64,000 bases of DNA from Escherichia phage vB_EcoM_G8, in sequence record NC_054915.1, one strand, 5' to 3'. The position numbers and the translations under genes are program-made. Of the stretch, positions 9,109-64,000 are shown one piece after another. How positions within the stretch are numbered: position 1 is the first letter of the stretch; each line of letters begins with the position of its first letter. The notes below the pieces were generated by a model that saw nothing but the letters and a program-made list of their open reading frames with translations, made no database searches and was not told where the DNA came from.

Positions 9109-9858
9109 ATGGCAAACATTATTCGTTGTAAATTACCAGATGGTGTTCATCGTTTTAAACCATTTACGGTAGAAGATTATCGAGATTTTTTGTTAGTTCG
9201 AAACGATATAGAACATCGGTCACCACAAGAACAAAAAGAAATAATTACTGATTTAATTGATGATTATTTTGGAGACTATCCGAAGACTTGGCAACCATTT
9301 ATATTTTTGCAGGTATTTGTAGGGTCAATAGGTAAAACTAAAGTACCGGTCACATTTGTATGTCCAAAATGTAAAAAAGAAAAGACAGTTCCATTTGAAA
9401 TATATCAAAAAGAATTAAAGGAACCTGTTTTTGATGTAGCTAATGTTAAAATTAAATTAAAGTTTCCTTCTGAGTTTTATGAAAATAAAGCAAAGATGAT
9501 TACTGAAAATATTCATTCTGTTCAAGTAGATGAAACTTGGTATGATTGGAAGGAAATTAGCGAATCAAGTCAAATAGAACTCGTTGACGCCATCGAGATA
9601 GAAACATTAGAACAAATTCTCGATGCAATGAATCCTATTAATTTAACTCTACATATGTCATGCTGTAATAAGTACATTAAAAAATACACTGATATAGTAG
9701 ACGTGTTTAAGCTATTAGTTAACCCAGATGAGATATTTACTTTTTATCAAATTAATCACACACTCGTAAAAAGTAATTATAGCTTAAATTCAATAATGAA
9801 AATGATTCCTGCTGAGCGCGGATTCGTATTAAAACTGATTGAGAAGGATAAACAATAA
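9109..9858 (+). CDS. 51: Baseplate hub assembly protein gp51
   Basis: 249-aa ORF, size and synteny as T4 gp51. Confidence 0.88.
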
Positions 9859-11033
9859 TGAGTATGTTGCAACGCCCCGGATATCCAAATCTCAGCGTTA
9901 AATTATTTGATAGCTACGACGCTTGGAGTAATAATAGATTTGTTGAATTAGCTGCTACTATTACCACATTAACTATGCGGGATTCTCTTTATGGCCGAAA
10001 TGAAGGAATGCTGCAGTTTTATGATTCTAAAAACATCCATACAAAAATGGATGGAAATGAAATAATTCAGATTTCTGTAGCTAATGCAAATGATATTAAT
10101 AATGTTAAAACACGAATTTATGGATGTAAGCATTTTTCCGTGTCAGTAGATTCAAAAGGCGATAACATCATTGCTATTGAATTGGGAACTATTCATTCTA
10201 TAGAAAATCTTAAATTTGGTAGACCATTTTTCCCTGATGCAGGTGAATCTATAAAAGAAATGCTTGGTGTCATTTATCAGGATCGCACATTATTAACTCC
10301 AGCGATAAATGCTATAAATGCTTATGTTCCTGATATTCCATGGACTAGCACATTTGAAAACTATTTGTCATATGTAAGAGAAGTTGGTCTAGCTGTAGGA
10401 AGTGACAAATTTGTATTTGTGTGGCAAGACATCATGGGAGTTAACATGATGGACTATGATATGATGATAAATCAAGAACCATATCCAATGATTGTCGGTG
10501 AGCCATCTTTAATAGGTCAATTCATCCAAGAATTAAAATACCCATTAGCATATGATTTCGTTTGGTTGACTAAATCGAATCCTCACAAACGTGACCCAAT
10601 GAAAAATGCTACTATCTATGCGCATTCATTTTTAGATTCTTCATTACCAATGATTACTACAGGAAAGGGTGAAAACTCTATTGTAGTGTCAAGGTCAGGT
10701 GCTTATTCTGAAATGACTTATAGGAATGGATATGAAGAAGCTATTCGTCTTCAAACTATGGCACAATATGACGGTTATGCTAAATGTTCTACTGTCGGTA
10801 ATTTTAACTTGACTCCTGGTGTTAAAATTATTTTTAATGATAGTAAAAATCAATTTAAAACCGAATTTTACGTTGATGAAGTCATCCATGAATTATCCAA
10901 TAATAATTCAGTAACTCATCTATATATGTTCACTAATGCAACGAAACTGGAAACAATAGACCCAGTTAAGGTTAAAAATGAATTTAAATCTGATACTACC
11001 ACTGAAGAAAGTAGTTCTTCCAATAAGCAATAA
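9858..11033 (+). CDS. 27: Baseplate hub protein gp27
   Basis: 391-aa ORF, size and synteny as T4 gp27; stop overlaps gene 28 region. Confidence 0.9.
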
Positions 11034-11565
11034 AGAAGTTTCTATTCCTAAAATGGGTCTTAAACACTATAACATTTTAAAAGATGTTAAAGGTCCTGAT
11101 GAAAATTTAAAACTTCTTATTGATTCTATTTGTCCGAATTTATCACCGGCAGAAGTTGATTTCGTTTCTATTCATTTATTGGAATTTAATGGAAAGATTA
11201 AATCTCGTAAAGAAATAGATGGCTATACTTATGACATTAATGATGTTTATGTATGCCAAAGATTAGAATTTCAATGGCTATACTTATGACATTAATGATG
11301 TTTATGTATGCCAAAGATTAGAATTTCAATACCAAGGAAACACATTTTATTTTAGACCTCCTGGAAAATTTGAACAATTTTTAACGGTGAGCGATATGTT
11401 ATCTAAATGCTTACTTAAGGTCAATGATGAAGTTAAAGAAATTAATTTTCTTGAGATGCCAGCATTCGTTTTAAAATGGGCAAATGATATTTTTACAACT
11501 TTAGCAATTCCTGGCCCTAATGGTCCAATAACTGGAATTGGCAATATTATTGGATTATTTGAATG
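10978..11565 (+). pseudogene. 28: Gene 28 (baseplate hub distal subunit) interrupted by a 55-bp tandem duplication; 5' part 10978-11289 (103 codons, premature TGA), 3' part continues in +1 frame to TGA at 11563-11565
   Basis: ORF track shows ...QRLEFQWLYL* ; sequence after the second repeat copy reads YQGNTFYFRPPGKFEQFLTVSDM...GIGNIIGLFE* in the other frame and ends in ATGA overlap with gene 29; 99+78=177 codons without one repeat copy. Confidence 0.8.
11221..11330 (+). repeat. Perfect direct tandem duplication, 2 x 55 bp (GGCTATACTTATGACATTAATGATGTTTATGTATGCCAAAGATTAGAATTTCAAT)
   Basis: Copy 1 at 11221-11275 and copy 2 at 11276-11330 are identical by direct reading. Confidence 0.9.
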
Positions 11566-13335
11566 AAAAAGCCACAAGAAATGCAAACGATGCGTAGAAA
11601 AGTTATTTCAGATAATAAACCAACACAGGAAGCGGCTAAATCCGCTTCCAACACTTTATCTGGACTTAACGATATATCTACGAAATTGGATGATGCTCAA
11701 GCTGCTTCTGAATTAATTGCTCAAACTGTCGAAGAAAAATCGAATGAAATAATTGGAGCAATTGACAATGTAGAAAGCGCAGTGAGTGATACTACTGCCG
11801 GTTCTGAGTTAATTGCTGAAACTGTCGAAATTGGCAACAATATTAATAAAGAAATCGGTGAATCACTCGGGAGCAAATTAGATAAATTAACAAGTTTACT
11901 AGAGCAAAAAATTCAGACAGCTGGAATTCAACAGACGGGAACTAGTTTAGCCACGGTTGAAAGCGCTATTCCTGTTAAAGTCGTTGAGGATGATACTGCC
12001 GAATCTGTGGGTCCTTTATTACCAGCTCCTGAAGCAGTTAATAATGATCCTGACGCTGATTTTTTCCCTACCCCTCAACCAGTTGAACCCAAACAAGAAT
12101 CACCAGAAGAAAAACAGAAAAAAGAAGCATTTAACTTAAAATTATCACAAGCTTTAGATAAATTAACAAAGACAGTTGATTTTGGATTTAAGAAATCCAT
12201 TTCAATTACTGATAAAATATCAAGCATGCTATTTAAGTACACCGTCAGTGCTGCTATTGAAGCCGCTAAAATGACTGCAATGATATTGGCTGTTGTTGTT
12301 GGAATAGATCTGTTGATGGTTCATTTTAAATACTGGTCAGATAAATTTTCAAAAGCCTGGGATTTATTTAATACTGACTTTACTAAATTCTCTAGCGAAA
12401 CCGGAACGTGGGGTCCTTTATTACAGAGCATCTTTGGTTCTATTGATAAAATTAAGAAGCTGTGGGAAGCTGGAGACTGGGGCGGATTGACAACAGCTAT
12501 TGTCGAAGGACTTGGAAAGGTTCTTTTTAATTTAGGAGAGCTTATTCAACTTGGAATGGCTAAATTATCTGCGGCAATTCTTCGAGTTATTCCTGGTATG
12601 AAGGATACTGCTGATGAAGTAGAAGGAAGAGCACTAGAAAATTTCCAAAATACTACAAATGCTTCTCTTAGCAAAGAAGACCAAGAAAAAGTTGCAAATT
12701 ATCAATATAAAAGAATGAATGGCGATCTTGGTCCAATAGCAAAAGGGCTAGACAAAATTGCGAACTGGAAAACTCGTGCATCTAACTGGATTCGTGGTGT
12801 TGATAATAAAGAAGCACTAACGACTGATGAAGAGAGAGCAGAGGAAGAAGAAAAATTAAAGCAACTTTCTCCGGAGGAAGCTAAAATTGCTTTAATGAAA
12901 GCTAATGAAGCTCGTGCTGCTATGAATCGTTTTGATGAATACGCTAATTCAGCTGATATGAGTAAAGACTCAACGGTTAAATCAGTTGAAGCTGCTTATG
13001 AAGATCTTAAAAAACGGATGGATGACCCGGATTTAAATAATTCACCGGCAGTTAAAAAAGAACTTGCTGCTAGATTTTCTAAAATTGATGCTACTTATCA
13101 AGAGCTCAAGAAAAATCAGCCTAATGCCAAACCTCAAACTTCTGCTAAATCGCCAGAAGCGAAACAGGTCCAGGTTATTGAAAAGAACAAAGCACAGCAA
13201 GCTCCTGTTCAGCAAGCATCTCCTTCAATCAATAATACTAATAATGTTATTAAGAAAAATACTGTCGTTCATAATATGACACCTGTCACAAGCACAACTG
13301 CTCCTGGTGTATTTGATGCGACTGGAGTTAATTAA
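11563..13335 (+). CDS. 29: Baseplate hub / tail length determinator gp29
   Basis: 590-aa ORF, size and synteny as T4 gp29. Confidence 0.9.
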   Translation: MKKPQEMQTMRRKVISDNKPTQEAAKSASNTLSGLNDISTKLDDAQAASELIAQTVEEKSNEIIGAIDNVESAVSDTTAGSELIAETVEIGNNINKEIGESLGSKLDKLTSLLEQKIQTAGIQQTGTSLATVESAIPVKVVEDDTAESVGPLLPAPEAVNNDPDADFFPTPQPVEPKQESPEEKQKKEAFNLKLSQALDKLTKTVDFGFKKSISITDKISSMLFKYTVSAAIEAAKMTAMILAVVVGIDLLMVHFKYWSDKFSKAWDLFNTDFTKFSSETGTWGPLLQSIFGSIDKIKKLWEAGDWGGLTTAIVEGLGKVLFNLGELIQLGMAKLSAAILRVIPGMKDTADEVEGRALENFQNTTNASLSKEDQEKVANYQYKRMNGDLGPIAKGLDKIANWKTRASNWIRGVDNKEALTTDEERAEEEEKLKQLSPEEAKIALMKANEARAAMNRFDEYANSADMSKDSTVKSVEAAYEDLKKRMDDPDLNNSPAVKKELAARFSKIDATYQELKKNQPNAKPQTSAKSPEAKQVQVIEKNKAQQAPVQQASPSINNTNNVIKKNTVVHNMTPVTSTTAPGVFDATGVN

Positions 13336-15724: not shown

Positions 15725-15732
15725 TTTGTGTT

Positions 15733-15790
15733 CCTCATGTTATGTCAGTAAGACTACTATAACACAACACGAGGGACTTGTAAACTACAT
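15733..15790 (-). promoter_or_regulatory. T4 early-type promoter cassette (GTTTAC -35, about 17-nt spacer, TATAGT -10) - copy 1 of a 2-copy repeat
   Basis: Minus strand reads GTTTACAAGTCCCTCGTGTTGTGTTATAGTAGTCTTACTGACATAACATGAGG; near-identical copy at 28160-28225. Confidence 0.5.
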
Positions 15791-15960
15791 TTTGAACTTT
15801 TTAGTACGCGTAATAGGCATGCGTCGATTTTATACTGTTTCATTGTTTGAAGAGCAGTATCAAAAACAGCATTAATGACACCAATTGGATTTCCACCCAA
15901 GTTTTTAAGCTTAACTAATGATAGTTTCTCATTAACACCTATCATTACGATATGCATCAT
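15757..15960 (-). CDS. Alt N-terminal paralog, downstream fragment (67 aa)
   Basis: Translation MMHIV...TALQTMKQYKIDACLLRVLKS aligns to Alt residues about 63-130 (MMHIVPFTL...VAMQTMRQYKIDACMLRILKS). Confidence 0.5.
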   Translation of the reverse strand: MMHIVMIGVNEKLSLVKLKNLGGNPIGVINAVFDTALQTMKQYKIDACLLRVLKSSKCSLQVPRVVL

Positions 15961-16142
15961 TTTATCGCCCGGCTTAACGTTTTATTCGTATCACCGCCAG
16001 AGGTGTATGTACAAAATCTAAATCCAGGAAGCACGCTTTCTTCGCCGGCTTGAATAGCAAAAATTTGTGGTATTTTATGCTTAGGATTTAAGTTAACAGC
16101 CGGCGCCGAAGCGCCGTCAAATAATTCTGTAATAAGTTCCAT
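15957..16142 (-). CDS. Alt N-terminal paralog, upstream fragment (61 aa)
   Basis: Translation MELITELFDGASAPAVNLNPKHKIPQIF...CTYTSGGDTN aligns to Alt residues 2-55; out of frame with the downstream fragment. Confidence 0.5.
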   Translation of the reverse strand: MELITELFDGASAPAVNLNPKHKIPQIFAIQAGEESVLPGFRFCTYTSGGDTNKTLSRAIK

Positions 16143-21009: not shown

Positions 21010-21470
21010 AGAGAGTCTCTTAATAGGTTTAACACATCAATAAATTCAGCTTCGGTTAGTATTGTATCATCTTTTGTTAGACCACTAGCCATGCTGTGCT
21101 TCAAAACTTTTCCTTTCGAGACTTGTAATGCATCACGAAAGCCCTTGTTTTGGATCGCTGCTTCAAAATATGCATTTGTGTATAATTCTTTCCACGCCGG
21201 GGAGTATCTTGAAAACGGAACTCCGAGCCAGAAGAGGGTCCCACGGTCCTGAGCTCTTGCATAAGACCTTCCAGCTTGCTGTGCGGCCAATCCAGACAAC
21301 CCAAATATACGACGTTGTTGTTCAACATTTTTCACCTTGCACTCTTGGAGGAATCCTTCAAGACCTCCAAATTGAATACCATCCATAACGAAAGGCCATT
21401 GGGCGAAATTACTTAATGCGCATGATGGCCATCTAAAACTACTTCTAATCTCTAACTCAGACATTTTCAA
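21006..21470 (-). CDS. Conserved hypothetical protein (30.3 position)
   Basis: 154-aa ORF, translationally coupled. Confidence 0.55.
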   Translation of the reverse strand: MKMSELEIRSSFRWPSCALSNFAQWPFVMDGIQFGGLEGFLQECKVKNVEQQRRIFGLSGLAAQQAGRSYARAQDRGTLFWLGVPFSRYSPAWKELYTNAYFEAAIQNKGFRDALQVSKGKVLKHSMASGLTKDDTILTEAEFIDVLNLLRDSL

Positions 21471-21662
21471 TACTTATAATTTCAACATCAGCCCAATGAC
21501 CATAGCAAGGAAGACGAAATTCAACTGGCCAGTTAGGGTCCTTTCTAATATAATAGACTCAACTCGTGGTTCTTCATGTTCATCAGTATATGGATTTTTA
21601 TCTGTTACTTTATATGTGACCTTAATGTACTGAATTCCAAAAATCTTATTAATTAATTATAT

Positions 21663-21860
21663 TCATACTAATTCCTTTAATCCGTAAATAGGAGATAATT
21701 CATCACCCATGCGAAGGTCTTCATTTCCATCTACCCAGGAAACAATATAAGCCTCTTTTATTTGAATACCACTCCATTTAAATGGAGGTAGAACCTTAGA
21801 AATTAATCCAGGTATACCAACTCCCTTTAATTCAACAGTTTGACCTAAAAAGAATTTCAT
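21663..21860 (-). CDS. Small hypothetical protein
   Basis: 65-aa ORF, stop overlaps next start. Confidence 0.45.
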   Translation of the reverse strand: MKFFLGQTVELKGVGIPGLISKVLPPFKWSGIQIKEAYIVSWVDGNEDLRMGDELSPIYGLKELV

Positions 21861-28167: not shown

Positions 28168-28225
28168 AAAGTCCTCATGTTATGTCAGTAAGACTACTGT
28201 AACACAACACGAGGGACTTGTAAAC
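28160..28225 (-). promoter_or_regulatory. T4 early-type promoter cassette - copy 2 of the 15733-15790 repeat, upstream of alc
   Basis: About 52 nt near-identical to 15733-15786 (one mismatch) with GTTTAC and TATAGT elements. Confidence 0.5.
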
Positions 28226-30938: not shown

Positions 30939-31614
30939 ACGCAAAAGATACATAAAAACGAATAGCTTCTAAGGCATTAATAACGTGCAAACAGAGGTAA
31001 AGAGATTTCATTAAAGCACGTTTAGCTTCGGCTTCTTGCTTAATAGCCCGGTTTAAACGAAAGTCGGCATCAGGAGATTCTTTAGCTAGTTCTACAAATT
31101 CTTTAGCATTTTCCCATTCACGGGTTTTAGTTAAAACATCATCATAATAGCGACCGATAGATTCAGCACGTTTCATAATAGCTTCATCTAATACAATCTC
31201 ATCAAATACCTTTGACGGATCAGTATAAAGATTTCGCATGATATGAGTATATGAACGACTGTGAATAGTTTCACTAAAAGTCCATGTAGCAACCCATGTA
31301 TCAAGGCTTGGGTCTGAAAGCAATGGCATAAGTACAGCAGACGGCGCACGACCTTGAATACTATCAAGTAATGATTGATACTTCAGATTATTAGTAAAAA
31401 TATTTTGTTGATACTGAGGAAGCTTATTAAACTGTGCAGCATCCATCATCAAGTTTACTTCTTCCGGACGCCAGAAAAACGAGAGCGAACGTTCAATAAG
31501 TTCTTCAAATACTCGATGCCGTTGAATATCATAACGCGCAATACCAAGACCTGAACCAAAAAACATAGGTTCTTTTAAAACATCGACCTGTTTAGTATTA
31601 AAAACTGTACTCAT
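30939..31614 (-). CDS. nrdB: Ribonucleotide reductase small subunit NrdB, exon 1
   Basis: 225-aa ORF ending ...LEAIRFYVSFA followed by in-frame TAA at intron start. Confidence 0.88.
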
Positions 31615-33206
31615 TATTTTGTCCTGTAAACTAAATTTCCACAGTCCCAGATTCTTCTAAGACCATTTGCATAACAATTTTCTACTTCAGTTATTGTATC
31701 ATCATAATTTTTAAGCTTGTTTTTAAGCTTATGTTTCATATAGCTTGAGCGGTGAAATACCTCTCCTTTATCGACGTACCAATAACATGGCTCAGAGATA
31801 TGACTAAATTCCATGACAGAGTCATAAACATTTGATAATGTACTGCACCATCTTCGATTGCCATAAGATAGACAATTAATTCCTTTTAATAATTTTGAGG
31901 CTCCTCCTACAACGCAAACCCCTAATTTTGAACACATCCTTAAAAGTTCATCACCCGAGCTATATCTAGATTTACCGATAGAAATAATTTGAACTAACTC
32001 ATTATTGTAATAAAGTCCTTTATACGTATGAGCTCCTGAGCAAAATCCTTGAAGATGATTCTTATTAATAAATTCTTTTGCCTCATCCTTATTAACAAAA
32101 CGCGCTTTGCATTTTCGGGCTGGTATTCTTTCTGATAATCCTAATTTATGCTTTATAATGGATTTCCAGATCTCTCTTTTTGTATCATCAATCCATTCAT
32201 TTTCGAAGATGTGAAGTAATTGAATTCCTTGTGCTTCACACATCTCTGTCTTCATCAAATGATAAGTTTCTTTAATTTTATCTGTTTCCTTTGACCCGCT
32301 AGAATGCCAATAAATTCCATCGTATTCTATAGCCAATTTTTTCTCAGGAATGTAAATATCTAATTCATACGGAGGAATAATTTTTCTAGTTTCTACGCAA
32401 TCAAATCCTAGATCTAAAATGAATTGCTCTATAGAACTTTGAGTATAATGAACGTCAATTAGTCCTTTGGATGAAAGAGCTCTATAAGCCGTCATCCGAG
32501 AACAATTTGCTAATTGTTGTAGTTCTTCTATAGAAATTTTGTAATTGATTTTATCTAGTATATCATGATTAATATGACCGTTATTTTTAATAGATTTTCC
32601 TATAGATGAATATAACGATGCCTTATATTCTTCAGTCCAATTTAATTTAGTCTTCTTAGATTTTTCGCGAGATTTTCTAGAATTCAGAATATCAACTGAT
32701 TTACCGTTTTCTATAACTTTTCTCGCTTCTTTCACGCTTTCTAATTGTGAATTATGCGTTACCCCATATCGTTCAATTAAAGTTTTTCTATTTTTATTTC
32801 TTGAAATTTTTTGATGAGTTGTTCCATATTTTTCTAAATAATTTTTGCGTTGAAGTTCAGACAAATATTTTTTATATTTTTCTTTTCCGCCAAAATTTGT
32901 ATCACGGCTTTGAATTCTCTTATCCGCGAAAAATATCCCTGCGCAGGATTTACTACATGTTGCTGGAAATACACGTTTCTTTGCTGTTTTCAGAGAAATG
33001 AAATTTCCACAAACTGCACATTTTAGATCGTTAATGTCAATGCCTTCCATAATTTGGAACACATTGAGCTTAAAATCTATTCCATCAGTTAGAAGAGCTT
33101 TATCTTCTTCTGTTAGTCTAGATTTAAGTTTTTCTTCTCCAAATGGAAGAAACTTTCCGTTTTTGTATATATTATCAAACATAGCGTTATTCTTAGTTAA
33201 CCACAT
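31614..33206 (-). CDS. Putative freestanding homing endonuclease, 530 aa: N-terminal Cys cluster, YG-x-xH repeats, HTH-like segment, Vsr/DUF559-like PD-(D/E)xK nuclease motif
   Basis: Motif YELDIYIPEKKLAIEYDGIYWHSS...GIQLLHIFENEW; no HNH motif; occupies the nrdA-nrdB interval where T4 carries mobE. Confidence 0.6.
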   Translation of the reverse strand: MWLTKNNAMFDNIYKNGKFLPFGEEKLKSRLTEEDKALLTDGIDFKLNVFQIMEGIDINDLKCAVCGNFISLKTAKKRVFPATCSKSCAGIFFADKRIQSRDTNFGGKEKYKKYLSELQRKNYLEKYGTTHQKISRNKNRKTLIERYGVTHNSQLESVKEARKVIENGKSVDILNSRKSREKSKKTKLNWTEEYKASLYSSIGKSIKNNGHINHDILDKINYKISIEELQQLANCSRMTAYRALSSKGLIDVHYTQSSIEQFILDLGFDCVETRKIIPPYELDIYIPEKKLAIEYDGIYWHSSGSKETDKIKETYHLMKTEMCEAQGIQLLHIFENEWIDDTKREIWKSIIKHKLGLSERIPARKCKARFVNKDEAKEFINKNHLQGFCSGAHTYKGLYYNNELVQIISIGKSRYSSGDELLRMCSKLGVCVVGGASKLLKGINCLSYGNRRWCSTLSNVYDSVMEFSHISEPCYWYVDKGEVFHRSSYMKHKLKNKLKNYDDTITEVENCYANGLRRIWDCGNLVYRTK

Positions 33207-40384: not shown

Positions 40385-40440
40385 CCGATAGTTGTATAGT
40401 ACCATGGAAGGACAAGAATGTAAACCGTTTTGTGAAAAAA
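40385..40440 (-). promoter_or_regulatory. T4 early-type promoter cassette (GTTTAC ... TGGTACTATAC), one of four similar copies
   Basis: Minus strand GTTTACATTCTTGTCCTTCCATGGTACTATACAACTATCGGCAAT; related copies near 58262, 61395, 61905. Confidence 0.5.
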
Positions 40441-40449
40441 TTTTTGAAA

Positions 40450-40482
40450 TAAAAAAGGGGACCTCTAGGGTCCCCAATTAAT
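40450..40482 (-). terminator. Gene 32 terminator hairpin GGGGACCCTAGAGGTCCCC followed by TTTTTTATTT
   Basis: Perfect stem and U-run immediately downstream of the gene 32 stop. Confidence 0.7.
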
Positions 40483-40497
40483 TAGTAATATAATCTA

Positions 40498-50087: not shown

Positions 50088-53000
50088 ATGGCTACTTTAA
50101 AACAAATACAATTTAAAAGAAGCAAAATCGCAGGTGCACGTCCTGCTGATTCAGTATTAGCCGAAGGTGAATTGGCTATAAACTTAAAAGATAGAACACT
50201 TTTTACTAAAGATGATTCAGGAAATATCATCGATTTGAGCATTTCTGCTGGTGGTAATATCAGTGGAAATATCACTCAAACTGGTAATTATTTACAAAAT
50301 GGAACATATAATCTTAATGGAAACCAGTTTGTTTATGCAGGAAGATATATTGAATTTTTACCTAAAACAGCTGGTAATGGCGCTTGGGCAAATCAACACC
50401 TAAATAAAGCTCCTATCTTTACAGATTTAAGTTCAGCTACTTCTGTTTCAGAATACCATCCGTTGATTAAACAACGCTATAAAGATGGAACTTTTTCATT
50501 AGGTACTTTAGTTTCTGAAGGTTCATTAAAATTCCATTACATTAATGAGGCAGGTGAATCTAAATATTGGACGTTTGCGCGCTCAGGTAATTTTCAAGTT
50601 GATTCTGGTAATTTATTAGTATCTGGTGGGTATTTAGTCGCTCATAGTAATATTGAAACAAGAACAGGTTCTTTGATTGGTCCATCTGTTATAACTAAAA
50701 ATATTTCATTTGATACAAAAGCATTCGGACAGTATGATTCACAGTCATTAGTTCAATATGTTTATCCTGGAACAGGTGAAGAAAATGGTATAAACTATCT
50801 TCGTAAAGTTCGAGCTAAATCAGGTGGAACCATTTACCATGAAATCGCTTCAGCTCAAACTGGTAAGAATGATGAAATTTCTTGGTGGACAGGAAATATA
50901 CCTACTACTAAATTAATGGGTCTTCGTAATGATGGAGCAATGGTATTACGTCGTTCGCTTGCTATTGGCACAATTACCACTGACGAAAATACTAACAACT
51001 ATGGCTCTCCTACTCCAATGGGAGAAAGATATATTGCTTTGGGCGATGCTGCCACTGGTTTAAAATACATTAAGCAGGGTGTTTATGATTTAGTAGGTAA
51101 TTGGAATTCTGTTGCTTCTATTACTCCTGACAGTTTCCGTAGTACTCGTAAAGCATTATTTGGACGTTCAGAAGACCAAGGCGGAACCTGGACAATGCCT
51201 GGAACGAACGCTGCTCTCTTGTCTGTTCAAACTCAGGCAGATGTGAATAACGCAGGCGATGGTCAAACCCACATTGGATATAATTCTGGCGGTAAATTTT
51301 CCCATTATTTCCGCGGTAAAGGCCAAACCAACATTAATACACAAGAAGGTATGGAAGTTAACCCTGGTATTTTGAAATTGGTAACTGGTTCTAATAATGT
51401 ACAGTTTTATGCTAACGGAACAGTATCTTCAATACAAAGAATTAAATTTGATAATGGATTAGTTCTTACTGGTGCTAGACCCGATGGTATTCAACTTGAC
51501 GCTCCTACAACAACAGATGGCACTAAAACTATACTGTGGGCTGGTGGTACTCGCCCAGGTCAGAATAAAAGTTATGTATCTATCAAAGCATGGGGTAATG
51601 CCTTTAACGCATCTGGCGATCGTTCCCGTGAAACAGTTTTTGAGGTAGGTGATGGGCAAGGTTACCATTTTTATTCTCAACGTGTAGCTCCTGCGCCTGG
51701 TTCGACTGTCGGGCCTATTCAACTTCGAGTTAATGGTGGTTTATTGACTTCAGGTAGTATTGTTGCTTCTGGTTCTATTACAACCGAATCTTCTTTGAGT
51801 GTTAATAACGGCATGTCAGTAAACGGCCAAGTTAAAATCGGCGGAACGGCAGATAATTTCCGTATCTGGAACTCTCGTTATGGTGCCATTTTCCGTCGCT
51901 CCGAAACATCATTATATATTATCCCAACTAATGAAAATGAAGGGGAAAACGGTGCAATAAGCAACCTTCGTCCGTTTAGTATTGAGTTAGGCACCGGCTC
52001 TGTTGTAATGGGAAACCATACTCAAGCGGGTAAAAACCTTTTCACGGTTGATAACGTTTCTAAATTAGTACAAACTGATGTTCGTTTCCGTGTTAACATG
52101 GATTCCGACGGTATTGTTTTGAATGCTTCTTCTCAAGCAGCGTCTAACTTTATCCAAGGACGTAAAGCGGATGTTACAAAATGGTATCTCGGTATTGGCG
52201 ACGGTGGTAACGTTGTTCGTTTACATAACTATACTTATTCCCACGGTATTGCATTAAACTCTGATACTGTAGATATTACTAAGCCTCTTAAAATTAATAA
52301 TATTCGAATTGGTACAGATGGCAACATCACAGGTGGTACTGATAATTTTGCCAATTTAAATACAACGTTAAACAATAAAGTCAATGTTGGTGGTTGGTCA
52401 GGCGGAGCTACAACTGGGTGGTATAAGTTTGCGACAGTTAATATTCCTCAATCTACTGGAACAGTATCATTTAAAATATATGGTGGTTCAGGATTTAATT
52501 TTAAAAGATATGGGCAAGCTTCTGTCGCAGAAATAATTCTTAGAACTGGAAATAATCCTAAAGGACTTAATGCCACACTATGGAACAGAACTTCTGAAGC
52601 ATTTTCACAAATTGCCACAGTTAACACGAGCAATGATACATATGACGTTTATGTTTATGTGGGAGGATATTCAAATGCTTTAGTCATCGAATATTCATGC
52701 ACCAGTAATAGTACAGTAACCGTAGTCGGTCTTAACGGAGGAATTCAACCTATTGTTGAAACACTTCCAGAAGGTCATGTAGTAGGTAAAACTGTAAGAT
52801 TATTGAATAACATCGATGGAATGTTTGCTGCTGGCGAATCTGATGTTGTTACTCGTGGTGAATTTGTTACCAATAACCAAAAAGGTTTACGTATTAAATC
52901 TAGAGGTAATGATATTGATTCGAATGCTGCTATCATTCGAAATGATGGTGGAAGTTTTTATATTTTAGCTACAGACAAGAATACGTCAGAAAAACCCAAT

Positions 53001-53978
53001 GCGGCTAGTGGTGATTGGAATAATTTAAGACCTTTCTCCATTAATATGGCTGATGGTCGCGTTGGTATGAACCATGGTCTAAATATTACCGGCGGTGGCT
53101 TGAATGTTACTGGTGGCTTGAATGTTACTAGTGGTAATACTAGTTTAGGTAATATCTCGTCTCGTGTAGTAGCAGGTTGGCGAGGAGCGTCTGGTTGGGC
53201 TGATAACTCGGATACAATGAAATCTAAAATCACCTTTATGGCAGACCATGGGGATTTATCTAATTCAGGCAGTTATTATCCTATTGTAGGTGCATACAGT
53301 AACTACGGCTCGGCGGGTTATCGTCAAACCTTTGAGTTCGGATGGGTCGGTTCCGGCACTACAGCGGGTTGGCGCGATGGTATTATTCGTATTCGCGGAG
53401 ATAATGCTAATGGCCAGCAAGCAAGATGGCGCTTTACAATGGACGGTACTTTAGATTGCCCTGGTAAAGTACTGCTACCACAAACAGGTGCCTTTGGTGT
53501 CAATACATCAAATGGTCTCGGTGGAAATAGTATAACATTTGGTGATAGCGATACCGGTATTAAGCAAAATGGCGATGGATTATTAGACATATATGCGAAC
53601 AATGTGCAAGTGTTCCGTTTCCAAAATGGTGATTTGTACTCATATAAAAATATAAATGCTCCAAACGTTTATATTCGTTCTGATATTCGTTTAAAATCCA
53701 ACTTTAAGCCTATCGAAAATGCACTTGATAAAGTTGAAAAACTTAACGGTGTCATTTACGATAAAGCTGAATACATCGGTGGAGAGGCAATTGAAACTGA
53801 AGCGGGTATTGTGGCCCAAACGTTACAAGACGTTTTACCAGAAGCTGTCCGTGAAACAGAAGACAGCAAGGGTAATAAAATACTCACTGTTTCTTCTCAA
53901 GCCCAGATTGCTCTTCTGGTTGAAGCTGTGAAAACACTTTCTGCTCGTGTAAAAGAACTTGAATCTAAACTTATGTAA
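50088..53978 (+). CDS. 37: Long tail fibre distal subunit gp37, T2-type with C-terminal intramolecular-chaperone-like domain
   Basis: 1296-aa ORF; N-terminus as T4 gp37; C-terminal DIRLKSNFKPIENALDKVEKLNGVIYDKAEY...KELESKLM resembles the S74-type self-cleaving chaperone domain. Confidence 0.9.
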   Translation: MATLKQIQFKRSKIAGARPADSVLAEGELAINLKDRTLFTKDDSGNIIDLSISAGGNISGNITQTGNYLQNGTYNLNGNQFVYAGRYIEFLPKTAGNGAWANQHLNKAPIFTDLSSATSVSEYHPLIKQRYKDGTFSLGTLVSEGSLKFHYINEAGESKYWTFARSGNFQVDSGNLLVSGGYLVAHSNIETRTGSLIGPSVITKNISFDTKAFGQYDSQSLVQYVYPGTGEENGINYLRKVRAKSGGTIYHEIASAQTGKNDEISWWTGNIPTTKLMGLRNDGAMVLRRSLAIGTITTDENTNNYGSPTPMGERYIALGDAATGLKYIKQGVYDLVGNWNSVASITPDSFRSTRKALFGRSEDQGGTWTMPGTNAALLSVQTQADVNNAGDGQTHIGYNSGGKFSHYFRGKGQTNINTQEGMEVNPGILKLVTGSNNVQFYANGTVSSIQRIKFDNGLVLTGARPDGIQLDAPTTTDGTKTILWAGGTRPGQNKSYVSIKAWGNAFNASGDRSRETVFEVGDGQGYHFYSQRVAPAPGSTVGPIQLRVNGGLLTSGSIVASGSITTESSLSVNNGMSVNGQVKIGGTADNFRIWNSRYGAIFRRSETSLYIIPTNENEGENGAISNLRPFSIELGTGSVVMGNHTQAGKNLFTVDNVSKLVQTDVRFRVNMDSDGIVLNASSQAASNFIQGRKADVTKWYLGIGDGGNVVRLHNYTYSHGIALNSDTVDITKPLKINNIRIGTDGNITGGTDNFANLNTTLNNKVNVGGWSGGATTGWYKFATVNIPQSTGTVSFKIYGGSGFNFKRYGQASVAEIILRTGNNPKGLNATLWNRTSEAFSQIATVNTSNDTYDVYVYVGGYSNALVIEYSCTSNSTVTVVGLNGGIQPIVETLPEGHVVGKTVRLLNNIDGMFAAGESDVVTRGEFVTNNQKGLRIKSRGNDIDSNAAIIRNDGGSFYILATDKNTSEKPNAASGDWNNLRPFSINMADGRVGMNHGLNITGGGLNVTGGLNVTSGNTSLGNISSRVVAGWRGASGWADNSDTMKSKITFMADHGDLSNSGSYYPIVGAYSNYGSAGYRQTFEFGWVGSGTTAGWRDGIIRIRGDNANGQQARWRFTMDGTLDCPGKVLLPQTGAFGVNTSNGLGGNSITFGDSDTGIKQNGDGLLDIYANNVQVFRFQNGDLYSYKNINAPNVYIRSDIRLKSNFKPIENALDKVEKLNGVIYDKAEYIGGEAIETEAGIVAQTLQDVLPEAVRETEDSKGNKILTVSSQAQIALLVEAVKTLSARVKELESKLM

Positions 53979-54003
53979 AAGAGGGCTTCGGCCCTCTAAG
54001 GAT
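53979..54003 (+). other. GC-rich hairpin AGAGGGC-TTCG-GCCCTCT between genes 37 and 38 (no U-run)
   Basis: Perfect 7-bp stem with UUCG loop. Confidence 0.4.
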
Positions 54004-54008
54004 TTTTA

Positions 54009-54815
54009 ATGGCAATTGTAGGTGTTCCTGGCTGGATTGGTGAATCTGCCGTGAATGAAACTGGACAACGTTGGATGGATGCTGCGATGAGAGCTGTTCG
54101 TGTTTCAGTTCCCGGTTGGATGAGTTCAATGGCAGGAAAGTCAGTTGAAAAAGCTTATTCAATTGGCTCAAATCATTCATATAATAAAGATACTTTAATT
54201 AATTGGCTTAAATCAATTGGAACAGCTCCTGCTGTTGTAACAATAACAGGAGATATTGTTTCTAGTTCTTCAACTATTCCGTGCTTAGATTTTCCTAGTT
54301 CATTAACCAATGAATATGTGACATTGATTATTAACTCTGGCGTTACTGTTTACGGCCGAGGAGGTAATGGGTCTGGATCTAGTGGAGGTTCTGGAGGCGC
54401 TTTAGTTCAAGCAACTGCTGGTGGTACGGCGATTAATAATGGTATTGGTGCACGCTTACGTATTACGAATAATGGTGCAATTGCTGGCGGCGGCGGCGGC
54501 GGCGGCGGTTGGTCCGCAGATTATAACTTCACATTACGTAATGTTGCTGGCGGCGGCGGCGGACGTCCTTTCGGTACTGGTGGTCGAGGTGGTCGAGGTA
54601 ATGGTGGTAATGCATCGTTAACCGCCGCAGGTGGTAAAGTAACCGTTGATGGTAATAACATGAGTGGTGCTGGTGGTAACGTTGGTGCGGCTGGTGGTGC
54701 TGCCGTTCGTACATCAAACTATAATACCAGTGGTGCTGGTGCTGCTGGTAAAGCTGTTACTGGTAATGCTCCAACTTGGACTAAAGTTGGTACAATATAC
54801 GGTTCAAGAGTATAA
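54009..54815 (+). CDS. 38: Receptor-recognising adhesin gp38 (T2-type, glycine-rich motifs)
   Basis: 268-aa ORF; N-terminus MAIVGVPGWIGESAVNETGQRWM; poly-Gly stretches GGGGGGGW and GGGGGRPFG. Confidence 0.88.
   Translation: MAIVGVPGWIGESAVNETGQRWMDAAMRAVRVSVPGWMSSMAGKSVEKAYSIGSNHSYNKDTLINWLKSIGTAPAVVTITGDIVSSSSTIPCLDFPSSLTNEYVTLIINSGVTVYGRGGNGSGSSGGSGGALVQATAGGTAINNGIGARLRITNNGAIAGGGGGGGGWSADYNFTLRNVAGGGGGRPFGTGGRGGRGNGGNASLTAAGGKVTVDGNNMSGAGGNVGAAGGAAVRTSNYNTSGAGAAGKAVTGNAPTWTKVGTIYGSRV
54486..54506 (+). repeat. (GGC)7 trinucleotide repeat encoding poly-Gly in gp38
   Basis: Read directly. Confidence 0.9.
54549..54560 (+). repeat. (GGC)4 trinucleotide repeat encoding poly-Gly in gp38
   Basis: Read directly. 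Confidence 0.85.
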
Positions 54816-58261: not shown

Positions 58262-58310
58262 TGATAGTTGTATAGTACCACAGTATGCTTTGGTTGTAAA
58301 CCGTTTTGTG
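58262..58310 (-). promoter_or_regulatory. T4 early-type promoter cassette upstream of motA
   Basis: Minus strand CGGTTTACAACCAAAGCATACTGTGGTACTATACAACTATCAA; similar to cassettes at 40385, 61395, 61905. Confidence 0.5.
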
Positions 58311-58331
58311 AAAAAATTTTTGAAATAAAAA

Positions 58332-58350
58332 AGGGAGAGCCTCGGCTCTC
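58332..58350 (-). terminator. Hairpin GGGAGAGCC-TCG-GCTCTCCC flanked by T/A runs
   Basis: Read directly. Confidence 0.5.
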
Positions 58351-58353
58351 CCT

Positions 58354-58506
58354 AAAATTACTGCATGACTGTGATAACTGTCATGATAACACGTTGAATG
58401 CCGAACGCAAGAAGACCTCCTGCTACGGCTGGAACAACACCTAAACCCGCCAGTAAAATGCTACCGGATACTAATGCAGCGCTTGTAATACCTATGAATG
58501 GACTCA
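58354..58506 (-). CDS. Small hydrophobic membrane peptide (about 49 aa)
   Basis: Manual translation MSPFIGITSAALVSGSILLAGLGVVPAVAGGLLAFGIQRVIMTVITVMQ; coordinates +/-2. Confidence 0.4.
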
Positions 58507-63050: not shown

Positions 63051-63989
63051 TTATTTAAATTGTTCAGTAACATCTTCAACTACTTCGTATTGGCAGGTAC
63101 GCATTTTAGCGTCGTTGTAATCAATCGGAATTGATACTACATCGCGAGGATGTACTTTAACTTTTACAACTCGGCTGGTTGAACTACCAAAGTGACGAAT
63201 ATAAGATTTAGAACACACATGCAGACCACGAGAACAAGTTTGTGTATCATCGTCGTTCACACGAGTACGTGGCATTTTAACTACTTTACCCGGACTGTTA
63301 TCAAAGGTATTTGAGTGACAGTCAAAGTAATTACTACGAACTACTTTCCAAGCATAGAAGTAACCATCTTCTGTAATTTCAATATCATTTGCTACCAAGA
63401 AATCAAAGAGTCGAGATACCGCTTTTTGGCTTGGGTTTTCCAACAGATTTTCCAAGAACGGAAAATAAAATTCAAAGTTTTCACCTTTTTCCATCGAGTC
63501 AAGAATACGATCAACCAGACCAGACCGTAATTCAATATTTTGATAGAACAAGCTTCCGCCTTCAATTCGAACATCGCCGGAAATATATTTTTCAACAGCG
63601 CGACGAACATTAATTTTTTGTGCAGCTTCTTCCAACTTATCCGCTACAAGCAGATTAAGAATTTCCTGGAAGTTTGAATGAGTATTAGGAGTTGCGTTAT
63701 AAGTTACACCGTCGACAGTAATTGAAATGAATTTTTTAGATGCATTCCAAATAATGTCAGATTTAGCAACTGGAGCAATAACTGCATCGCTATTAACTTT
63801 AACTGTAATATCACCGCTAATAGTAACTTTAGGGCGTTTAGCTTCTTCAGCATTTTTCAAAACACGACGGATTGTGTCAACCGATACATCCTTCCAATAA
63901 GCTAATTCCTGTTGGGTATAATTACCACTTGAATACAGTTTAACAATTTCAGCTTGTTCGTTTTTGGTCAGGCATTTAATATTGTACAT
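63051..63989 (-). CDS. rIIB: rIIB lysis inhibition / membrane integrity protein
   Basis: 312-aa ORF (same as T4 rIIB), MYNIKCLTKNEQAEIVKLYSSGNYTQQELA; the rIIA side would lie beyond the window. Confidence 0.92.
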   Translation of the reverse strand: MYNIKCLTKNEQAEIVKLYSSGNYTQQELAYWKDVSVDTIRRVLKNAEEAKRPKVTISGDITVKVNSDAVIAPVAKSDIIWNASKKFISITVDGVTYNATPNTHSNFQEILNLLVADKLEEAAQKINVRRAVEKYISGDVRIEGGSLFYQNIELRSGLVDRILDSMEKGENFEFYFPFLENLLENPSQKAVSRLFDFLVANDIEITEDGYFYAWKVVRSNYFDCHSNTFDNSPGKVVKMPRTRVNDDDTQTCSRGLHVCSKSYIRHFGSSTSRVVKVKVHPRDVVSIPIDYNDAKMRTCQYEVVEDVTEQFK

Positions 63990-64000
63990 AATTTTCCTTA

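Follow-up and report, generated by a model that had tools for sequence, protein, structure and literature searches.

Does gene 28 of this T4-like phage carry a genuine frameshifting duplication, or did the duplication enter its sequence when the genome was assembled? The window analyzed here, the whole stretch of 64,000 nt, is a Tequatrovirus (T4-like) segment that runs from gene 23 to rIIB. Within it, the initial annotation had described a perfect 55-nt duplication, back to back at 11221-11330, under a title that presented it as the frameshift of an essential baseplate gene, and had offered three readings: a very recent duplication, an assembly artefact, or a phage that depends on some rescue mechanism. 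Gene 28 is essential in classical T4 genetics. The further claim that gp28 is a baseplate hub component in T4 agrees with a review of the T4 tail, which counts it among the hub proteins at approximately one copy per tail, with its exact location unsettled (PMC3004832). A sequence search of the PDB returned no solved gp28 structure.

The Repeat and Its Effect on Gene 28

The duplication is exact at the level of the sequence. In a script comparison, 11221-11275 and 11276-11330 are identical at 55/55 positions and follow each other head-to-tail without a gap, and Tandem Repeats Finder calls the same array (11219-11330, period 55, 2.0 copies, 100% matches, score 224), bearing out the repeat as first described. 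The identity of the two copies extends a further 2 nt leftward (AT) and 0 nt rightward, and the unit, GGCTATAC...TTTCAAT, has a register that is uncertain within 2 nt. The joint between the copies reads CAAT/GGCT, and the 110 bp lie between unique flanks at 11220 and 11331. It is effectively impossible for a perfect 55-nt match at a fixed offset to occur by chance. In the 64 kb, the repeat is the single Tandem Repeats Finder array with a period >21, and a whole-window repeat search likewise found no second long tandem pair that is perfect; the long repeats that it reports elsewhere are dispersed and imperfect.

These dispersed repeats are intergenic. They comprise a direct pair of 54 nt and 98% identity (15732-15785 and 28172-28225), a direct pair of 98 nt and 78% identity (40387-40484 and 58263-58360), and a five-copy family of 30 nt (39388, 40378, 58254, 61394, and 61902); the dispersed direct repeats are presumably shared promoter or terminator modules.

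The effect on gene 28 is to divide it between two reading frames (Table 1). The open reading frame from the ATG at 10978 is 103 aa long, ends in ...QRLEFQWLYL and is closed by TGA 11287-11289, while the frame opening at 11276, GYTYDINDVYVCQRLEFQYQGNTFYF...GIGNIIGLFE, closes in the ATGA overlap with gene 29 (start 11563). Both of these features had been reported previously, namely that the frame from 10978 runs into that TGA and that the +1 frame after copy 2 ends in the ATGA overlap, and both were reproduced here, the first by the ORF list and translation and the second by translation. It had also been claimed that removal of one copy gives a single ORF, and deletion of one copy by script does produce an unbroken ORF of 177 codons. 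This collapsed 177-aa ORF matches the Pfam family PF11110 (Phage_hub_GP28) over its full length, at profile positions 1-154 of 154 (E = 3.2e-108), whereas gene 28 as written yields two PF11110 fragments, at positions 1-78 and 97-154, the latter from a 59-aa sub-ORF. Similarly, when the gp28 of a relative is compared with the window by tblastn, query residues 1-100 align in frame 1 and residues 81-177 in frame 2. A function on the minus strand was also considered for this locus and rejected, as merely chance ORFs of 25-27 aa are found there.

Table 1. Coordinates of the duplicated unit, the two parts of gene 28, and neighboring or terminal features in the window.
Feature	Coordinates	Strand	Basis and remarks
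Gene 27 (baseplate hub), intact	9858..11033	+	99.7% identical to relative, full length
Gene 28 as written	10978..11289	+	gp28 residues 1-99 plus WLYL, then TGA; PF11110 profile positions 1-78 of 154
Copy 1 of 55-bp unit	11221..11275	+	Exact identity with copy 2
Copy 2 of 55-bp unit, the presumed surplus copy	11276..11330	+	Relatives single-copy; 55-column alignment gap
Remainder of gene 28, residues 100-177	11331..11566	+	+1 relative to the upstream part; translation, tblastn, Pfam
Gene 29 (hub / tape measure), intact	11563..13335	+	ORF list and tblastn
rIIB and 11-nt rIIB/rIIA spacer	63054..64000	-	tblastn places rIIB at 63989-63054

Comparison With Related Phages and Sequence Collections

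The gene 27-29 region shares 95-99% identity with ~500 Tequatrovirus phage records, and the best genome match to the window is ~97% over 25 kb. The second copy is peculiar to the sequence studied here. The aligned span is 55 bp below that of the query in 498 of the 498 matching phage records, the alignment with relatives contains a clean 55-column gap in 11/11, and the BLAST HSP of every relative breaks at window position 11274/11275, with an overlap of 57 nt in the coordinates of the relative. The same two-copy structure in related genomes, an outcome for which the initial annotation had allowed, was therefore not found, the 11 aligned relatives and ~500 records being single-copy.

Wider searches gave a similar result. 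No contiguous two-copy junction was found among phage records with a 60-nt query, which returned only rearranged two-piece matches to single-copy genes. The junction 31-mer has zero matches in IMG/VR, where the 55-mer occurs once and as a single copy; the 55-mer has zero matches in metagenome contigs and GTDB genomes, and BLAST searches gave zero matches in E. coli genomes and plasmids (PLSDB). A protein identical to the gp27 of the window is present on 23 public contigs, and gene 28 is intact on all ten of the independent contigs listed among these, with a product of 177 aa, or of 152 aa where a later start is called. Exact-product look-ups for the gp28 fragments, gp29, gp37, and gp38 found no identical proteins on record.

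Three sites within the 55-bp unit are variable among relatives. The two copies in the window are identical at these sites, and both carry the SNP combination of this genome, which indicates that the second copy was made from this same template, whether in silico or in a very recent event.

Two other origins of the insert were considered and rejected. A chimeric joint between two different phages does not fit the shared SNP combination of the copies or the flanks, which align continuously to relatives, and a small intron or mobile insertion does not fit an insert of just 55 nt that repeats the neighboring coding sequence exactly.

Translations of ~97 CDS annotated in Pu-Krd-SF5, the closest relative, were compared with the window by tblastn. 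Approximately 95 of them are found full-length and in one frame, the exceptions being accessory and naturally variable genes, and gp28 is the only product of an essential gene that is split over two frames. As ~95 CDS are intact in a single frame, the base-level quality of the assembly is high, with one isolated structural oddity. General or random sequencing error is thus an unlikely source of the break, while a single structural joint fits.

A Probable Assembly Origin for the Second Copy

We consider it highly likely that the second 55-bp copy is an artefact of circular closure, generated in silico during assembly, and not a mutation of the phage. When a genome is circular or circularly permuted, the contig returned by a de Bruijn assembler has ends that overlap by k, and the largest k-mer used by default is 55 in metaSPAdes and, for shorter reads, in SPAdes. 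The period of the repeat is exactly 55 and matches this default, a length that could in principle be mere coincidence. The copies adjoin at one joint only in 64 kb, and the genome is of the circularly permuted Tequatrovirus type.

In the mechanism that we propose, a de Bruijn assembler would have turned the circularly permuted T4-type genome into a contig in which the first k bases equal the last k bases, and with k = 55 the contig ends would overlap by exactly 55 bases. The contig would then have been re-oriented to the T4 origin at the rIIA/rIIB junction, that is, cut there, with the old end pasted onto the old start and the overlap left untrimmed. Since an overlap that is untrimmed before reopening results in a perfect tandem duplication of length k at the former contig ends, the old ends would carry a 55-bp unit repeated perfectly in tandem, and here they would happen to fall within gene 28. 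Copy 1 would then probably correspond to the final 55 bases of the contig as originally assembled, or else to its first 55, with a 2-nt ambiguity in the register. For this genome, we infer the identity of the assembler, its k value, the re-orientation, and the cut-and-paste step.

The position of the window end bears on the re-orientation. By tblastn and direct comparison of end sequences, the window ends 11 nt beyond the rIIB ATG; the T4 reference record terminates at the rIIB ATG, and that of Pu-Krd-SF5 terminates 9 nt beyond it. In the T4 reference record, rIIA starts at nt 12. The chance that a random cut in a genome of ~168 kb falls at this origin is ~1e-4, and the source record has therefore very probably been rotated. 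This conclusion, that re-orientation after assembly is very probable, requires the record to end with the window.

Overlapping ends of this kind have precedents. For the T4-like phage 132, Roush et al. ran SPAdes 3.12.0 with its default settings. The assembly was a single contig whose ends overlapped by 55 bp, which they took as a sign of a circular genome, and they trimmed one end before reopening the contig in alignment with T4 (PMC8483715). Another study describes '127 bp artificial overlaps' (PMC5923482). As a control sample, we compared the two termini of six deposited Tequatrovirus genomes whose orientation differs from that of T4, and one of the six, OR062944.1 (Escherichia phage 303Ecol101PP), has an exact 99-bp overlap between its prefix and suffix, demonstrating that untrimmed overlaps do reach databases in Tequatrovirus. 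Another k value of SPAdes is 99, and this 'complete genome' record is probably 99 bp too long. The terminal overlaps produced by SPAdes-type assembly resemble the repeat in gene 28 in that they are exact, have the length of k, and occur in circularly permuted T4-type genomes. They differ in sitting at the two ends of a record, whereas the repeat here is internal and tandem, as expected from rotation without trimming.

The ends of the record PP400787.1 (FL23) share a terminal match of 12 nt.

A Recent Duplication in the Phage as an Alternative

The same repeat could instead reflect a very recent, real 55-bp duplication, with a gene 28 null allele held in a mixed population and complemented by co-infecting wild-type genomes, a reading that we regard as improbable. 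The proposed origin of such a duplication is replication slippage between two AT dinucleotides at a spacing of 55 nt, possibly with the aid of a hairpin, and the sequence offers both a 2-nt AT microhomology at the repeat boundary and a unit that holds a hairpin (-12.3 kcal/mol, z = -2.3). The presence of the genome's own SNP combination in both copies fits a recent event, but is equally expected for an artefact. Slippage-type tandem duplications are a cause of frameshift mutations in T4, known from classical rII and lysozyme genetics, and the repeat resembles them in being short, tandem, and not a multiple of 3, with microhomology at its boundary. Those mutants, however, came from non-essential or conditionally selectable genes, whereas a gene 28 null would not persist as the consensus. 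Because gene 28 is essential, a null allele of this hub gene is not expected as the consensus of a plaque-purified stock. Moreover, neither the ~500 relatives nor any collection searched contains the duplication, its length is precisely a k value of assemblers, and a separate line of evidence points to re-orientation of the record.

Possible Translational Rescue

A further reading accepts the duplication as real and holds that the phage tolerates it because ribosomes shift by +1 ahead of UGA 11287 or hop, or because the gp28 fragments cooperate. We regard this as highly improbable, and give equally little credence to its more specific form, in which the duplication is present in phage DNA and enough gp28 is made by a hop from UUA-UGA (11284-11289) to UUA 11318 or by an unrecognised +1 event. 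If true, it would be a newly arisen and unselected translational bypass, in a gene whose product is needed at just ~1 copy per tail.

For a hop, the sequence has a take-off-like arrangement of UUA 11284-11286, the UGA stop 11287-11289, and a hairpin at the stop codon. An in-frame UUA (11318-11320) lies 31 nt downstream, and a hop to it would give a 184-aa protein. The predicted junction peptide of a rescued 184-aa or full-length gp28 is ...EFQWLYLEFQYQGNTF..., and ...LEFQWLYLEFQYQGNTFYFR... is a further peptide to be expected should the duplication prove real. This UUA is, however, third in line, as it is preceded by UUA 11292 and UUA 11302, neither of which is in frame and both of which soon run into a stop. 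The hairpin (11276-11313 on the plus strand, with the same sequence in copy 1) is imperfect, GGCUAUAC...GUAUGCC, and the z-score of its folding energy within the gene 28 coding sequence was obtained against shuffles; it is conserved in relatives and is normal coding sequence in every one of them.

The sole shift that would restore the frame is a +1 shift before UGA 11287, in the context UAC UUA UGA C preceded by GAAUUUCAAUGGCUA. Neither a slippery site of the CUU-U type nor an SD-like stimulator lies upstream of the UGA, and the 25 nt upstream of UAC UUA UGA C contain no purine-rich SD-like element. For a restart, an in-frame ATG at 11396 follows a GGTGA sequence, but initiation at GTG 11387 or ATG 11396 would lose residues 100-121, and the Pfam domain is split mid-way. 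No relative has such an arrangement, so that there is no sign of selection for any of these routes.

Two known systems of recoding provide a comparison. The bypass of a 50-nt coding gap in T4 gene 60 is similar in that a non-coding stretch lies inside an essential gene, where a sense codon directly precedes a stop and a hairpin and is matched by a codon further downstream. In gene 60, however, the gap is unique and conserved and does not duplicate adjacent coding sequence. In gene 28, two out-of-frame matching codons precede the in-frame one, the insertion is missing from every relative, and neither a nascent-peptide nor an SD-like signal can be seen. With RF2 (prfB)-type +1 frameshifting, gene 28 shares a position just before an in-frame UGA at which a +1 shift would restore the frame, but the hallmarks of that system, a CUU-UGA slippery context and an upstream SD-like stimulator, are missing.

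Frameshifting, hopping, and re-initiation were accordingly rejected, as direct reading and folding gave no supporting signals. The biological frameshift announced in the title of the initial annotation has nothing in its favor beyond the raw sequence, and no rescue signal accompanies it. Among the three readings put forward there, the assembly artefact is strongly favored over the recent duplication and the rescue mechanism by the length of 55, the apparent re-orientation, the published precedent, the control genome OR062944.1, and the relatives.

Other Features of the Window

Besides gene 28, a single other frame break was seen in the window, at 21470-21663 on the minus strand. A hypothetical Pu-Krd-SF5 gene of 68 aa has its counterpart there, matched in frames -3 and -2 with no intact minus-strand ORF left. 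This is a small accessory gene, decayed or naturally variant. At 31614-33206 (minus strand), between nrdA and nrdB, lies a 530-aa ORF in a position where Pu-Krd-SF5 has just a 52-nt spacer. It shows sub-threshold, restriction-endonuclease-like Pfam similarity (MTES_1575, E = 1.5e-4; DUF559, E = 8.5e-3), and is probably a free-standing homing-endonuclease-like insertion. At 15760-16142 (minus strand), two short ORFs, whose counterparts in the relative are 67 and 61 aa long, adjoin the full alt gene and match an Alt-like ADP-ribosyltransferase at its N-terminus. A second alt paralogue is full-length (685-697 aa) in most relatives, and the two ORFs appear to be what is left of it.

The tail-fibre region at 50088-54815 (plus strand) encodes gene 37 (distal tail fibre, 1296 aa) and gene 38 (adhesin, 268 aa), the product of the latter matching Pfam GP38 over its full length as well as Gp38_N. 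The amino acid identity to the closest whole-genome relative is ~36% for gp37 and ~41% for gp38, and the DNA of this region is at most ~89% identical to any phage record. From the divergence of genes 37 and 38, the receptor specificity of this phage is likely to be distinct.

Significance

If the second copy is an artefact, the source record contains 55 bp too many and presents an essential baseplate gene in disrupted form, and annotation pipelines would call gene 28 a pseudogene or two fragments. For scans of other genomes, a perfect tandem duplication with the length of an assembler k (21, 33, 55, 77, 99, 127, or 141) should be suspected as a closure artefact; this rule applies to re-oriented genomes that assemble as a circle, and an artefact is to be presumed until reads show otherwise. 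The 55-bp duplication is best classed as not being a real feature of the phage, and its importance lies mainly in data quality. In the phage genome, gene 28 is most likely a normal gene of 177 codons with one copy of the unit, and the locus would be of biological interest only if reads confirm the duplication, in which case it would represent a lethal-looking allele that survives.
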